Shown here: in pieces, positions 55,946 through 60,257 of the stretch | Layout of the letters: each line of letters begins with the position of its first letter | Numbering within the stretch: position 1 is the stretch's first letter | Made by a program: the position numbers and the translations under genes | Virus record (IMG/VR): IMGVR_UViG_3300034072_001149 | Location: 32,001-96,000 of that record | DNA length: 64,000 nucleotides | Origin: a virus | Reading direction: 5' to 3' (one strand) | The notes under the pieces: generated by a model | Seen by the model: the letters and a program-made list of their open reading frames with translations, nothing else | Databases searched by the model: none | What the model was told of the DNA's origin: nothing

Positions 55946-57214
55946 TCAATGATACTTAAAGTTTTTTATATCCAAACTGTCATTCTGGAAAAGTATATCA
56001 GCTGAAGTTAGCCTTCCTCCTTTGCCGCAGCCAGTATCCATGAAGATTGCCTCTCCTCCCTTGGATCCCTTGACCTTAAGTGGCTGAGTAGTGGATCTGA
56101 TGTCGTGTCCTACCATGACTCTTTTTCCAGAAGGAATTCTGTTAACCCATTCATATATGCGAGTTGGGTAACCATCAGCTCTTGGCTCCGAGGTATTGTC
56201 AACTTCTCCAAACAGTGCCATAGTTTCAAATTTGCCTATAAGCCTAGGGGAATCGATATCAAACATTTCCGGTTCAGCGGCGCCATGTGTAAAAAGAGTA
56301 TTGCCAATGACCCAATGATGTCTGGATAGACCAAGAAGGGCTTTGTATCGAATCTCAAATTTCCTTCTTGCTTCTGATCCCAATTCTTCAATAGCCCTGG
56401 TAGTGACTTTGTTTCCATCACTCAATCGAACTTTGACATCATTATGTTTGATCTGCTCTAACCATCTTTCAATCTTGCGTTCGTGATTGCCAATCAAACA
56501 AAGCCCGCGCCCGCGTGACACTACATTGTAGACCTGATCAACACATTCTATGGGATTGGGTCCATAGTCAATTATGTCACCTAGAAAGATACAAAAAAGG
56601 TTTCTCTTAGCTGCCCATTCTATTGCTGCCTTGAGAGGTTCTAGCATGGCATGGACGTCACCAATTACCATAAGACCCCTGAAACCCAGTTTTTCAATGT
56701 TCTCTTTGAGAAGATCATTTGACAGTTTGGGAACTACTTCAAAGTTCTCCTTGCGTGTATCAATTACATTGGCGACACCATCCCCGCGCAATATATCTCG
56801 TTCGTTGTTTCTGAAGATATGTTCCTGCTTGGTAATGGCAGATATTGCTCCTGGTCGCCAACTGTTTCTAGCATCAATCAGCTTGGATTCCAGACTTCGA
56901 TTACAGACGATATAGAAGATGGGAACCCCCACCTTTAAGGCTATATCAGCCAGGCTAATCCTGTCTTTTTTCCTCAAATTAGTGGCATCAACTACTACTC
57001 GCTCGCCCAATTCTAGCTTGAGTTGAGCTCTACGATACACCTCTCTGAATACAATGTCATTGATATTTGTTTTCTGGACATCACCACAAAGCTCATAGCG
57101 AATAGCTTCACTACTCATGATTTCGTGATCAGCAAACATTTTAGACAGAGTTGTCTTGCCGCTGTTGGCCGGACCCACAAAGATCACCAAACTATGAAGT
57201 GGTATTCTTTTCAT
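55946..57214 (-). CDS. Polynucleotide kinase-phosphatase (Pnkp-like, no ligase domain)
   Basis: GPANSGKT and VVDATN kinase motifs; GDVH, GDIIDYGP, GNHE, GH and DTG metallophosphatase motifs. Confidence 0.85.
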   Translation of the reverse strand: MKRIPLHSLVIFVGPANSGKTTLSKMFADHEIMSSEAIRYELCGDVQKTNINDIVFREVYRRAQLKLELGERVVVDATNLRKKDRISLADIALKVGVPIFYIVCNRSLESKLIDARNSWRPGAISAITKQEHIFRNNERDILRGDGVANVIDTRKENFEVVPKLSNDLLKENIEKLGFRGLMVIGDVHAMLEPLKAAIEWAAKRNLFCIFLGDIIDYGPNPIECVDQVYNVVSRGRGLCLIGNHERKIERWLEQIKHNDVKVRLSDGNKVTTRAIEELGSEARRKFEIRYKALLGLSRHHWVIGNTLFTHGAAEPEMFDIDSPRLIGKFETMALFGEVDNTSEPRADGYPTRIYEWVNRIPSGKRVMVGHDIRSTTQPLKVKGSKGGEAIFMDTGCGKGGRLTSADILFQNDSLDIKNFKYH

Positions 57215-57220
57215 ATCACC

Positions 57221-57262
57221 AGTATAAATGAAATTGACACTGACGTCAATTTTGTAACATAA
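57221..57262. promoter_or_regulatory. Overlapping divergent sigma70-type promoters on a palindrome
   Basis: AAATTGACACTGACGTCAATTT; minus strand TTGACG-17-TATACT; plus strand TTGACA...CATAAT. Confidence 0.6.
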
Positions 57263-57287
57263 TAGAGCATACAGGTGAGGATTCTAT

Positions 57288-57734
57288 ATGCGCCGCTCTT
57301 ATCTAATTGCCAGCCTTGCTGGTGCTATTGCTCTATTTACAACCGGATCACTTGTGGTGGTTTCCAACCGGGCATCTAAGATTGAGTCATTCAAAACCAA
57401 GCTTTCAGAGCTTACATTTTGTAAAACGGCTTATGAGATTGCCAGTTCTCACCCCAGCTATATCTCACGATTCGTTGAAGACGAACGGACCAAAGAAGAA
57501 CTTCTCAAGGAGTCAGAACTCCTGAACTCCAAAAAGGAGAAGATTGATCTTCTTATTGATCAGCATATCAAGGAAGCGGCCGAATTACCGCTGGATGACA
57601 TCTCGGTGCGAACCCTTATTGATAAAACCACCTGGGACGCAGAACTTGAAGCGGTTCAAGCGGCAGGTTGGGTCGAGGAACACGAAGCATTCCTCGACCA
57701 AATTGACGAAATCTGCAAACCATACTTCAAGTAA
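57288..57734 (+). CDS. Hypothetical membrane-anchored/exported protein
   Basis: GAGG SD; N-terminal hydrophobic segment. Confidence 0.65.
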   Translation: MRRSYLIASLAGAIALFTTGSLVVVSNRASKIESFKTKLSELTFCKTAYEIASSHPSYISRFVEDERTKEELLKESELLNSKKEKIDLLIDQHIKEAAELPLDDISVRTLIDKTTWDAELEAVQAAGWVEEHEAFLDQIDEICKPYFK

Positions 57735-58299
57735 TGGTCGCATGACCTTCTGATGAAATACGGAGAGTCCCGCGCTTGACTCGAAGGGAACCCTTAGTGC
57801 TAGGATGCTCAGGGTTCTCTCGAGTAGTAAACCCAGTCTGACATTCCATGTGATGAACATAGAACGTTTTACCGCGAGCTTTGACTACCCACATGGGAAT
57901 GAAATCAAACTCCATGGACTTCTTGTTGAAGTGGAAGTCGATGTTTTTGCTTTCAAACTCCAGAGGGAACTCCTTGAACTGCTCCGCAATCCCTCTCTTC
58001 ATGGACTTGATCTGATTCCAACGAATCTTAGCCGTTTCCAAAGCAGTCATGAGCTTGCGGGCAATTGCCCTTTTGTGACCATGTTCGATTCGCAGTTTAC
58101 TGATACGATCCCGAACAGGATCCAACATAGGATCCAGATGGTTCTCATATTCACTAAACTTTCGTTCTAGTGCCTTGATCTGGAACTTGCTTTCTCGGAC
58201 CTCCGAAGAGGCGTGAGCATAAAGCTCACGCCAATCGGAACGCCACTCAATGTAACCCTGATAATCGGTGAAGTTGGGCTGAATACCGTGGACGCTCAT
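57727..58299 (-). CDS. Hypothetical protein
   Basis: AGGAG SD; YIEWRSDWRELY shared with 58311..58565. Confidence 0.7.
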   Translation of the reverse strand: MSVHGIQPNFTDYQGYIEWRSDWRELYAHASSEVRESKFQIKALERKFSEYENHLDPMLDPVRDRISKLRIEHGHKRAIARKLMTALETAKIRWNQIKSMKRGIAEQFKEFPLEFESKNIDFHFNKKSMEFDFIPMWVVKARGKTFYVHHMECQTGFTTRENPEHPSTKGSLRVKRGTLRISSEGHATIT

Positions 58300-58310
58300 T
58301 TTGATTCTCC

Positions 58311-58565
58311 TTAAGCAGCGGTTGCGACAGATGCCGCTGCCAGCTGATTATTCTTGAACTCCGTTGCTGCGGTGCGTTCCAGCATCAGCTGATTAGCACG
58401 GACACGCAGGCGGTGTAGCTGGCTCTGTAGACCAGAGTTATCGTTGCCCTTGTTTTCCCGCTGTTCTCGCTTGTTGGCGCGAATCTCGAGAGTGAGCTCC
58501 TTGTATTGAGCTCGCCAATCAGCACGATAAGCCAGGTATTCTTCACGAGTAGTAAAAGTAAACAT
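58311..58565 (-). CDS. Hypothetical protein
   Basis: YLAYRADWRAQY; paralogous to the N-terminus of 57727..58299. Confidence 0.7.
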   Translation of the reverse strand: MFTFTTREEYLAYRADWRAQYKELTLEIRANKREQRENKGNDNSGLQSQLHRLRVRANQLMLERTAATEFKNNQLAAASVATAA

Positions 58566-58876
58566 TAGATTTCTCCTCCAAAAGTCAGTTTAAAAAGCAG
58601 TGCGGTGTCACGGTTCTCGAAATACCACTTATCGGCACCACCGTTGTGCCAAAAGCTACCCTGTTGTTCCTTACACCAGGTCATCATTTCCGACAACGGA
58701 CCACCTTTTTGAATATTAACGGTGGTACATTCCGGCCAAGCTTCCCGGAGTCGCTTACTCCAGTGTTTGTCTCGAGTGCTCTGTCCAACTGGTGGACAGA
58801 ACTTGAGGCCACATTCCCTCCAAGCTTTGATATAAGCTTGGGTGGCAATTGACTGGGCTGTGTTGAAGTCCATCAT
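58565..58876 (-). CDS. Hypothetical protein (DAxxFKL family)
   Basis: MMTWC...WYFENRDTALLFKLTF. Confidence 0.7.
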   Translation of the reverse strand: MMDFNTAQSIATQAYIKAWRECGLKFCPPVGQSTRDKHWSKRLREAWPECTTVNIQKGGPLSEMMTWCKEQQGSFWHNGGADKWYFENRDTALLFKLTFGGEI

Positions 58877-59334
58877 CAGCTGACCGCCGAGAATCGCTTC
58901 GTGATTGCGTGGGCTTGTTCTTTGGTGCAGGGACCAATGCCAAGCGCAGTCACAATGGGCTGACCATCAAATGCCGTTCCCGGCACTACATGGTTCTTGT
59001 CAATGATGAGGGAAGTAATCAGACCAGCTTCCTGAGCCGCCTCATACGCTCGCAGGATCGCTGCTTCGTTCTTGGCTTTGAGGATGATCTGAGTGCCGAT
59101 AAAGTCCGGGCCCTGGTAAACGCGCAGGAGCTCAGGATCTCGACGGCTAGCAAGAAGCACACAATTCTTGGCAGCGTGACAAGCCTGGCTTGCCAACTTG
59201 CCTGGCTTCATATCCAGGTCGCCTCGAATGATGCTGTAGATGCGAAGCTTTTCAGACGCAGCTTCGAAGGCGTCATAGTCGTTGTCGTTGTCGTAACGAG
59301 CAGCGGCTTCCTACAAGAAAGAATTCGTGATCAT
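58876..59334 (-). CDS. Peptidyl-tRNA hydrolase Pth2 with in-frame TAG at codon 8
   Basis: Promoter plus AAGGA SD plus ATG 59334; MITNSFL*EAAARY...KLRIYSIIRGDLDMKPGKLASQACHA...TALGIGP; TAG at 59311-59313. Confidence 0.85.
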
Positions 59335-59375
59335 TGTCGTTCCTTTTGGTTACTGTCCAACATCGGACAAGCTTC

Positions 59376-59403
59376 AACATAAGAGGGTTTCAGGATATGT
59401 CAA
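59376..59403 (-). promoter_or_regulatory. Sigma70-type early promoter of the Pth2 gene
   Basis: TTGACA (59403-59398), 16 nt, TATGTT (59381-59376). Confidence 0.6.
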
Positions 59404-59416
59404 CCGTCTTTTTGAA

Positions 59417-59776
59417 TTATTCTCTCCAACGCAATTTGAACATCATTGCGTCTTTGCCATTTTCAAAGATAACTCCCACACTGGACGAGCAACCGCTGGT
59501 CCATCCTGCTTTTTTGAAGTCACCAAACTTTACATTGCTTTCAAGCCATGGTAACATTTCTGAAAAGGTGGAGGCTATGAATCCAGTGATTCTAACCAAA
59601 TACCATCCTGGATATTTGGAATTCACGGTATCAACAAAATCAAGATCGGGGAAATCGTCTTCCTCAAACATACTGTTGAGTTTGGCTTCTCCCAAGACAC
59701 CATCGGTCTCAGGTTCCGCTACATCGTCGAACCATTCTTCGACGTGATCTGTATTTTCATTACGATAGTAGGGCAT
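59417..59776 (-). CDS. Hypothetical protein (DAxxFKL family)
   Basis: MLPWLE...VIFENGKDAMMFKLRW. Confidence 0.7.
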   Translation of the reverse strand: MPYYRNENTDHVEEWFDDVAEPETDGVLGEAKLNSMFEEDDFPDLDFVDTVNSKYPGWYLVRITGFIASTFSEMLPWLESNVKFGDFKKAGWTSGCSSSVGVIFENGKDAMMFKLRWRE

Positions 59777-59792
59777 TTTCTCAACTCACTCT

Positions 59793-59867
59793 TTAAATCA
59801 AACCATAGACGGATTGATAGTGAGGAGGAGCCCGAGGAGCCTAGTGTTGGGTAAGAATCTTTTTCAT
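59793..59867 (-). CDS. Candidate mini-ORF/leader peptide MKKILTQH*APRAPPHYQSVYGLI with in-frame TAG and RAPP motif
   Basis: ATG 3 nt after the upstream TAA; TAG at 59841-59843; CGG GCT CCT CCT; TAA at 59793-59795. Confidence 0.5.
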
Positions 59868-59870
59868 GCC

Positions 59871-60257
59871 TTACTTATACTGATCTAACATATAAGAGTC
59901 AATATTCAAGGACAGTTTGGCAATGAGAGCATCATTGGCTGTTTGGGTTCTGACTACTAGGCGCATCTGATATTCAGAACCACTTGAAAAGTCATCATCA
60001 ATTTCCATAAAACTAAAGAAATGACCTTTTATACAATCCAAGATCTGACGGAAGATTTCGGGATTGGGCCAATAGAAAAATGAAGGATAAACACAAACAA
60101 ATGGCTTACCATAAAATACGAAGTCAAGTGGGGTATCAGACGTCCAGTCTATGGTAGCGACTGGTTCAGTAAATCTCCGATTAAGAGAACCGTAGATACA
60201 GTCTTTACTAGTCCTGTAGACTGTTTTGACTAGCGGTCGACTAGTTGAGGAGATCAC
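59871..60257 (-). CDS. Hypothetical protein
   Basis: Fills the gap in a co-directional cluster; NDALIAKL tail; start uncertain. Confidence 0.55.
   Translation of the reverse strand: MISSTSRPLVKTVYRTSKDCIYGSLNRRFTEPVATIDWTSDTPLDFVFYGKPFVCVYPSFFYWPNPEIFRQILDCIKGHFFSFMEIDDDFSSGSEYQMRLVVRTQTANDALIAKLSLNIDSYMLDQYK

Follow-up and report, generated by a model that had tools for sequence, protein, structure and literature searches.

A conserved amber-gated Arg-x-Pro-Pro leader in giant phages: a predicted arrest peptide that probably senses stop-codon suppression

Known arrest leaders and the phage mini-ORF

Regulatory arrest peptides of the RAPP/RGPP type are represented by ApdA, ApdP, ApcA, SecM (in which the motif is RAGP), CruR and Streptomyces uORFs (PMC7897499, PMC10951233, PMC10987492, PMC12992588). 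Fujiwara et al. have mutated every position of the RAP core in ApcA, ApdA and ApdP: the Arg is irreplaceable and both prolines are needed, while at the second position the change of Ala to Gly is tolerated in full or even enhancing, and Ser, Asp and Pro are partly permissive (PMC12992588). At arrest the P site is occupied by the third codon of the core and the A site by the fourth; the versatile cores are RAPP and RGPP, which are not rescued by the elongation factor EF-P, and RGPP, RAPP, RDPP and RSPP are among the tetrapeptides most avoided in bacterial proteomes (PMC12992588). According to Morici et al., the 5-7 residues that precede RAPP modulate the arrest, and can weaken or abolish it (PMC10951233).

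The use of an in-frame amber codon as a regulatory gate is known from an engineered switch, in which a TAG was placed in the tna leader (Liu, Qi, Yanofsky and Arkin 2011, as outlined in the review PMC6412442). Suppressor tRNAs are also carried by stop-codon-recoded phages, namely the crAss-like, Lak and related phages (for example PMC10607447 and PMC12386605). In the attenuation systems of ermC/ermB and secM-secA the downstream Shine-Dalgarno sequence (SD) is hidden in a hairpin, which is refolded by a ribosome that has stalled in the leader, the trigger being an antibiotic or the status of secretion. Finally, prfB, the gene for release factor 2, is autoregulated by an in-frame UGA associated with a +1 frameshift.

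The window analyzed here is a stretch of 64,000 nucleotides, bases 32001-96000 of a 159.2-kb viral contig from IMG/VR; since the estimated completeness of this contig is only 34%, it is a piece of the genome of a giant phage. The features of the locus of interest, in window coordinates, are as follows.

59902..59874, minus strand: promoter-like element, TTGACT (59902..59897), a 17-nt spacer and TATAAG (59879..59874), with an ATG 6 nt further on
59867..59793, minus strand: leader mini-ORF, MKKILTQH, TAG, Ala-Pro, Arg-Ala-Pro-Pro, a variable tail of 9 codons, TAA
59843..59841, minus strand: gate codon TAG of the leader, codon 9 (after Met and 7 sense codons)
59834..59823, minus strand: Arg-Ala-Pro-Pro core, CGG GCT CCT CCT, conserved as a peptide
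59828..59826 and 59825..59823, minus strand: P-site and A-site codons, respectively, of the predicted arrest state (assignment after PMC12992588)
59795..59793, minus strand: final stop TAA of the leader
59776..59417, minus strand: putatively regulated gene of 119 aa, with a product ending in DAMMFKLRW

Translation of 59793-59867 on the minus strand gives MKKILTQH, stop, APRAPPHYQSVYGLI, stop. The leader ATG (59867) lies 3 nt past the TAA of an upstream 128-aa ORF, and 16 nt separate the leader stop from the ATG of the next ORF (59776). A first-pass annotation of this DNA had described the mini-ORF exactly, in both sequence and spacing, leaving its strand unnamed; the alternative reading of the same coordinates on the plus strand was dropped, as its translation holds nothing relevant and no such peptide. 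The leader sits within a run of translation-related genes (55946..63960, minus strand), whose members are a CysRS-like gene (N-terminal sequence only), a K+ channel-like protein, a tRNA-CUA, a class II aaRS core, a phosphatase-like protein, Pth2 and a polynucleotide kinase/phosphatase-like protein.

Like the RAPP/RGPP leaders, this mini-ORF is a small co-oriented upstream ORF with Arg-(Ala/Gly)-Pro-Pro near its functional end, its core appears to be placed where an arrested ribosome would unmask the ribosome binding site of the next gene, and its residue tolerance matches the published mutagenesis, with Arg never varying and position 2 taking Ala, Gly, Ser or Asp. Unlike the monitoring substrates of that type, it has no signal peptide or membrane segment, with just 5-8 residues ahead of the gate codon, and at the predicted arrest point its nascent chain of 14-18 residues is wholly inside the exit tunnel, too short for a pulling force to release the arrest: what is regulated would be entry to the arrest site, by way of the in-frame UAG, and not release. 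It differs further in being encoded by a phage, in being putatively leaderless, and in preceding a gene that is not a sec/yidC or metal-homeostasis gene. Judged by sequence and placement, the leader is a predicted arrest peptide of the RAPP/RGPP type, whose input would differ.

The closest logic is that of the engineered amber-gated tna leader: there, downstream expression depends on an orthogonal tRNA(CUA) that takes the ribosome over the leader UAG and on to its site of action, and the same need would exist in the phage. The tna switch is synthetic, works by Rho-dependent transcription termination and employs an unnatural amino acid, whereas the phage leader is natural and would act on translation initiation via an SD hairpin, using the tRNA of the phage. 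A phage-encoded UAG-reading tRNA and in-frame UAGs in phage genes are shared with the recoded phages; unlike the TAG-recoded ones, this genome uses the standard code, with long ORFs free of internal TAGs and TAG still serving as a terminator. The resemblance to prfB lies in an in-frame stop within a short leading segment that reports on the decoding of that very stop, but prfB senses the level of a release factor and frameshifts within one gene, while the phage leader would combine tRNA read-through with arrest in the control of a separate gene. With ermC/ermB and secM-secA it would share the remodeling of a hairpin by a leader-stalled ribosome, stop-codon suppression taking the place of the antibiotic or of secretion as the trigger. 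In our literature search no natural stop-gated arrest leader turned up. The phage leader would be the first natural arrest peptide found to have stop-codon decoding, and not secretion, metals or drugs, as its input, the first phage-encoded regulatory arrest peptide found, and a natural counterpart to the engineered amber-gated leader switch.

Conservation of the design and selection on the Arg-x-Pro-Pro peptide

Taken as a lone occurrence the motif is not significant, and could be due to chance. There are 5 occurrences of RAPP or RAGP in the six-frame translation of the 159-kb contig, and the 4 outside the leader were discarded as chance matches, being in non-coding frames behind TGA stops. 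If the definition is widened to RxPP with x = A, G, S, D or P the occurrences are 13, and only the one in the leader is preceded by a Met-short peptide-TAG prefix. The downstream protein, DNA patterns and Pth2 served as queries in the search for relatives, which were found on contigs of 32-480 kb. The same leader design is present in 11 related giant-phage genomes, window included (the other loci are L123, L129, L120, L119, L121, L122, L124, L126, L127 and Phosso). The L119 copy sits in a complete genome of 435,856 bp; L126 and L127, the latter on a 25-kb fragment, are more distant copies. Phosso is a cultured Sinorhizobium phage (PV764938.1), whose leader lies in a gap of the annotation and stops at the start assigned to CDS XYS97422.1.

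In all 11 copies an ATG, situated 5-7 nt past a promoter-like element, is followed by 4-8 sense codons, a TAG, 2-6 codons, and Arg-x-Pro-Pro. The tail that follows Pro-Pro is variable in both sequence and length, and the final stop falls anywhere from 28 nt before to 8 nt after the downstream ATG. When a specific DNA pattern of the core was run against 2.9 million viral contigs, only members of this family were retrieved. A loose version of the pattern returned 91 stretches, nearly all of them chance matches in GC-rich DNA without the conserved context, and a metagenome scan gave the same contigs again plus chance matches (for example L012 and L013). The first-pass annotation had allowed for chance occurrence, and had proposed to look for a TAG-x-x-RAPP pattern in related phages: the TAG is invariant and RxPP is kept in 11 of 11 copies, with 2-6 codons between them. 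Because the design is conserved in 11 genomes, with a synonymous variation that by sequence comparison is far beyond chance, we consider a fortuitous origin of the motif excluded.

The pattern of substitutions bears on what is being conserved. In pairwise comparisons of the RxPP codons of 8 copies there are 60 synonymous and 15 non-synonymous differences, all 15 of the latter being Ala/Gly exchanges, and the most variable sites are the third codon positions. Arg is encoded by CGG, AGG, CGA, CGC and AGA, and by CGT in L126, L127 and Phosso, such that all six Arg codons are used. Over the 11 copies the core is RAPP five times, RGPP three times, RSPP twice and RDPP once: Arg and Pro-Pro never vary, and the only residues seen at x are Ala, Gly, Ser and Asp, all of which fall within the set that is permissive for RAPP-type arrest in the published mutagenesis (PMC12992588). 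This match was not built into the searches, as the distant copies were reached via Pth2 and not via the motif. The gate is TAG in 11/11 copies, and never a sense codon, TAA or TGA, although the codons that flank it do change (His to Val, Ala to Val, Pro to Gln). An antisense ORF was considered as the cause of the third-position variation and rejected, since that frame contains a stop as well as Arg/Leu changes; none of the antisense frames of the core is open or better conserved in the 8 copies. The balance of synonymous and non-synonymous changes indicates that selection acts on the RxPP peptide, beyond the nucleotides alone.

A second caveat raised at the outset, that the nascent chain is short, is largely answered. 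The 5-7 residues that modulate arrest on RAPP (PMC10951233) are present ahead of the core, and in the leader they include the amino acid inserted at the UAG; at the same time the chain would comprise only 14-18 residues at the arrest point, and the preceding residues may weaken or abolish the arrest. Over the 11 copies, residues of His are clustered beside the gate codon, as in His-His-TAG, His-His-Leu-TAG-Leu-His and His-Tyr-TAG-His-His, which could influence the context of read-through or the strength of arrest.

Leader start, hairpin over the downstream SD, and the downstream gene

The ATG of the leader is preceded in 11/11 copies by TTGAC (TTGAT once), 17-18 nt, an AT-rich hexamer (TATAAG, TAAATA or TATAAA), and a further 5-7 nt. 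This layout persists in the genomes that lack the upstream 128-aa gene (L123, L120, L122 and L124), and it leaves no room for an SD between the -10-like hexamer and the ATG. The mRNA of the leader would then start at or beside the AUG, and be leaderless or nearly so, a reading drawn from the consensus spacing with a -10 that is non-canonical; the weakness of the SD, listed at the outset as a caveat, would be explained by this conserved placement of the mRNA start. A sigma-70 scan of the locus did not list the leader element, whose second hexamer lacks the canonical T at position 6. A T4-type late promoter was also considered for the AT-rich box and set aside in favor of the -35/-10 reading, its spacing to the ATG being inconsistent. 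A similar arrangement occurs elsewhere in the source contig (30110-30150, plus strand, 1.9 kb before the window), where TTGACA, 17 nt, TATAAC and 6 nt precede the ATG of a long, ordinary ORF (MKKPKTNPW...); it suggests that there are other leaderless starts in this phage.

The 128-aa protein encoded upstream of the leader yielded no relatives when used as a search query. In L119 (3330-3385) the upstream gene of this type ends with a TAG that shares the frame of the leader and precedes its ATG by one codon, so that suppression could let ribosomes from the upstream gene run on into the leader; the counterpart of this stop in the window is TAA, and the in-frame TAG arrangement is not conserved.

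The transcript can form a hairpin, with its 5' arm at or just past the Pro-Pro codons, that sequesters the SD of the next gene, as derived from minimum free energy (MFE) folds, helix tables, covariation and modelled accessibility.

59827..59780, minus strand: SD-sequestering hairpin
59827..59819 and 59818..59814, minus strand: 5' arm, CUC + CUCACU and AUCAA, respectively
59801..59797, 59790..59785 and 59782..59780, minus strand: 3' arm, UUGAU, AGUGAG and GAG, respectively

AGUGAG is an SD-like element 8 nt before the downstream ATG. In the MFE folds of 11/11 copies the 5' arm begins no more than a few nt from the predicted P-site codon of the arrest, and the 3' arm is the SD region, ending 5-9 nt before the downstream ATG. 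The pairing is kept between inner stem sequences that are unrelated among the copies, and the anti-SD and SD elements, listed below, differ from clade to clade.

anti-SD CUCACU with SD AGUGAG
anti-SD UCCUCCA with SD UGGAGGA
anti-SD CUCCUU with SD AAGGAG
anti-SD CUCC(G) with SD (U)GGAG

Since a MAFFT alignment of the inner stem was not structural, we built a covariance model from one copy, which recovered 10 of the 11 copies in a structural alignment (A9). In this alignment 89.5% of the cells are paired, as compared to 67% in shuffles and 33-40% when the partners are slid, with the proviso that the alignment is fitted to the structure of the model and the pair counts are somewhat inflated. Changes on both sides are seen in 17 of the 20 pairs, and none of 500 shuffles reaches the observed scores. 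The z-scores of single-sequence folds are modest, from -1.3 to -3.3 in the other copies and -0.6 in the window, whose leader fold is not unusually stable. Overall, the hairpin covaries, and it joins the arrest site to the SD of the next gene.

The effect of a ribosome on this hairpin was modelled by assuming that the mRNA is unwound to about 13 nt past the P-site codon. With the UAG in the A site the modelled reach of the ribosome ends upstream of the anti-SD arm, whereas with the first Pro codon in the P site it takes in that arm. Under constrained folding the mean unpaired probability of the SD is 0.24 in the free mRNA, 0.24 with a ribosome at the UAG and 0.55 with an arrested ribosome; the modelled accessibility rises upon arrest in 11/11 copies, the opening being only moderate (0.27-0.47) in those of the AGUGAG type. 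No intrinsic terminator or U-run was found at the leader, which places the putative control at translation.

An orthologue of the 119-aa gene follows the leader in 11/11 genomes, with products of 105-122 aa that end in DAM(M/L)F(K/R)LRW. The 119-aa protein has no match in Pfam or PHROG, and its AlphaFold2 model (mean pLDDT 59.7) matches no fold in the PDB at E ≤ 0.001.

Suppressor tRNA, proposed mechanism and alternative readings

A tRNA that could read the gate codon and a second gene with an early TAG are found on either side of the leader.

61556..61632, minus strand: tRNA with anticodon CUA (ARAGORN), 1.7 kb upstream of the leader on the same strand
59403..59376, minus strand: promoter-like element of Pth2, TTGACA, 16 nt, TATGTT; conserved
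about 59370..59354, minus strand: small conserved hairpin before Pth2, UGUCC ... GGACA, followed by the TAG-gated Pth2 start
59334..58876, minus strand: Pth2 gene, with a TAG at codon 8, 460 nt downstream of the leader

The tRNA-CUA matches the Rfam family RF00005 with 73 bits against a gathering score of 29. Such a tRNA is present in 10/10 assessable leader-bearing genomes (L127, a 25-kb fragment, is outside this count), usually 1.7-2.7 kb upstream of the leader and on the same strand. In related genomes (L132, L134 and L135) the sense tRNAs nearest to the suppressor are tRNA-Lys (CUU/UUU), and by this similarity the suppressor may descend from a tRNA-Lys and insert Lys.

The genome itself uses the standard code, with TAG not reassigned: this code leaves long ORFs open and free of internal TAGs, one of them 3466 aa in length, reading TAG as sense extends almost no real gene, and TAG terminates 14 of the 179 ORFs in the contig, for which reason an efficient suppressor would bring side effects. 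Near the tRNA only two short, early and conserved UAGs were seen, that of the leader and that of Pth2. The latter, which had been pointed out as the counterpart at codon 8 of the codon 9 gate, is confirmed in the sequence, and in the Pth2 genes of relatives a TAG is retained at codon 4-8. The layout of promoter, hairpin and gated Pth2 is common to L120, L119 and L124. With a conserved promoter-like element of its own Pth2 need not belong to the operon of the leader, and it is probably a parallel target of the tRNA. The Agrobacterium phage Atu_ph07 (L128) has an opal suppressor tRNA-UCA (PMC6102473), and its Pth2 is gated by TGA at codon 7 instead of TAG: across these genomes the gate codon appears to follow the suppressor, TGA going with UCA and TAG with CUA.

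On these grounds we favor, as a likely explanation, that the leader is a translational attenuator by which the downstream gene is turned on only with UAG read-through, when arrest on RxPP opens the SD hairpin. The leader probably senses stop-codon suppression, and the most likely agent of read-through is the phage's own UAG-reading tRNA. The promoter-like element would start the mRNA at or by the leader AUG. In the absence of suppression, release factor 1 (RF1) would terminate the leader at the UAG after 8 codons; a ribosome at the UAG would be too far upstream to disturb the hairpin, and the next gene would be off. In the presence of the charged phage tRNA(CUA) some ribosomes would pass the UAG and, five codons beyond it, would be held on Arg-Ala-Pro-Pro in the manner of ApdA and ApdP, the P site being occupied by Pro and the A site by Pro-tRNA. 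The arrested ribosome would cover and unwind the 5' arm, freeing the SD for initiation on the gene of the DAMMFKLRW family, and a single event of read-through would in this way be held and amplified. It is possible that the arrest ends by drop-off of the short peptidyl-tRNA, followed by hydrolysis by Pth or Pth2. The main proposals of the first-pass annotation fare well: the gating of a predicted RAPP arrest site by a TAG is backed by the invariance of the TAG and the conservation of RxPP at the peptide level, the putative sensing of a suppressor by the tRNA-CUA of every assessable leader genome, and the suggested regulation of the downstream gene by the covarying hairpin that runs from the arrest site to the next SD.

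Other readings of the same features have to be weighed. In one of them read-through matters and durable arrest does not: ribosomes in transit, perhaps with an EF-P-dependent pause at Pro-Pro, would activate the next gene by melting the hairpin transiently or by coupling termination to reinitiation. The leader of L124, in which the final TGA overlaps the next ATG (ATGA), those of L121 and L122, which end 8 nt inside the next gene, and that of L127, which is in frame with it, would all suit such a coupling, and it is established that Ala-Pro-Pro and Gly-Pro-Pro are also pause motifs of the polyproline type. However, the final stop of the leader is not conserved, and in four copies it lies 14-28 nt before the next ATG; moreover, Arg is invariant through six codons and x is arrest-permissive, neither of which is required by a plain polyproline pause, and RAPP arrest is refractory to EF-P (PMC12992588). 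We regard this reading as unlikely, though it is the best of the alternatives.

A somewhat less probable reading is that the leader reports the activity of RF1, or the leakiness of UAG, with near-cognate host tRNAs reading through when RF1 is limiting. As a matter of established knowledge read-through of a UAG always pits RF1 against a tRNA, and the use of TAG as a normal stop in 14/179 ORFs would be compatible with such a sensor; against it are the cognate tRNA-CUA that accompanies the leader in 10/10 assessable genomes, and the TGA that takes the place of TAG as the Pth2 gate of Atu_ph07 along with a UCA suppressor.

It is very improbable that the ORF simply ends at the TAG (as an 8-codon leader, or as none at all), and that the stretch downstream is only RNA or DNA, serving as an anti-SD, an operator, or a promoter segment. 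It is true that the anti-SD arm includes the Pro codons and the bases that follow them, but the Arg and Ala/Gly codons are outside the main helix and yet constrained at the amino acid level, their third positions being free and the first position of the Arg codon switching between C and A, and in the 11 copies the TAG is never replaced by TAA or TGA. RNAalifold proposed a small helix in the interval from TAG to Pro-Pro, which was rejected as it is broken in several copies, and a search of the leader in Rfam gave no match. We likewise give very little credence to the opposite polarity, in which the downstream gene is repressed by an arrest that follows read-through, or the mRNA is targeted for cleavage by collision-sensing nucleases (cleavage of bacterial mRNA can follow ribosome stalling, for example by SmrB; PMC10897456), because the arrested ribosome, with leader nt 40-42 in the P site, would end about 20 nt before the SD without blocking it sterically, and the conserved geometry matches hairpins that are opened by an arrest, like that of secM-secA.

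The attenuator reading can be set in a wider frame, to which we assign about even chances: in these giant phages of standard code the suppressor tRNA would be a trans-acting regulatory key rather than a device for recoding, and would mainly open a few stop-gated locks, those of the leader and of Pth2, with gate and anticodon co-evolving. If so, the leader would be a natural sensor of the state of the genetic code, in which rare read-through is converted into sustained activation via nascent-peptide arrest. Many phages of standard code carry suppressor tRNAs of unclear purpose, and the leader would supply a concrete and conserved target for them. The presence of the unannotated design in a cultured phage, Phosso (host S. 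meliloti), makes the question directly testable, and the compact 100-nt module could double as a reporter of suppression efficiency.

The TGA-gated Pth2 start of Atu_ph07 and its counterpart of the leader fall in the regions L128:2970-3060 and L128:3960-4000. At the position of the leader Atu_ph07 has a short ORF, which reads Met-Lys-TGA-Ile-Val-Phe-Lys-Pro-Pro-TAG and is accompanied by a hairpin, CCUCCAUA/UAUGGAG, over the SD of the next gene; it may be an opal-gated variant that stalls at Pro-Pro-stop, a resemblance that we consider suggestive only.
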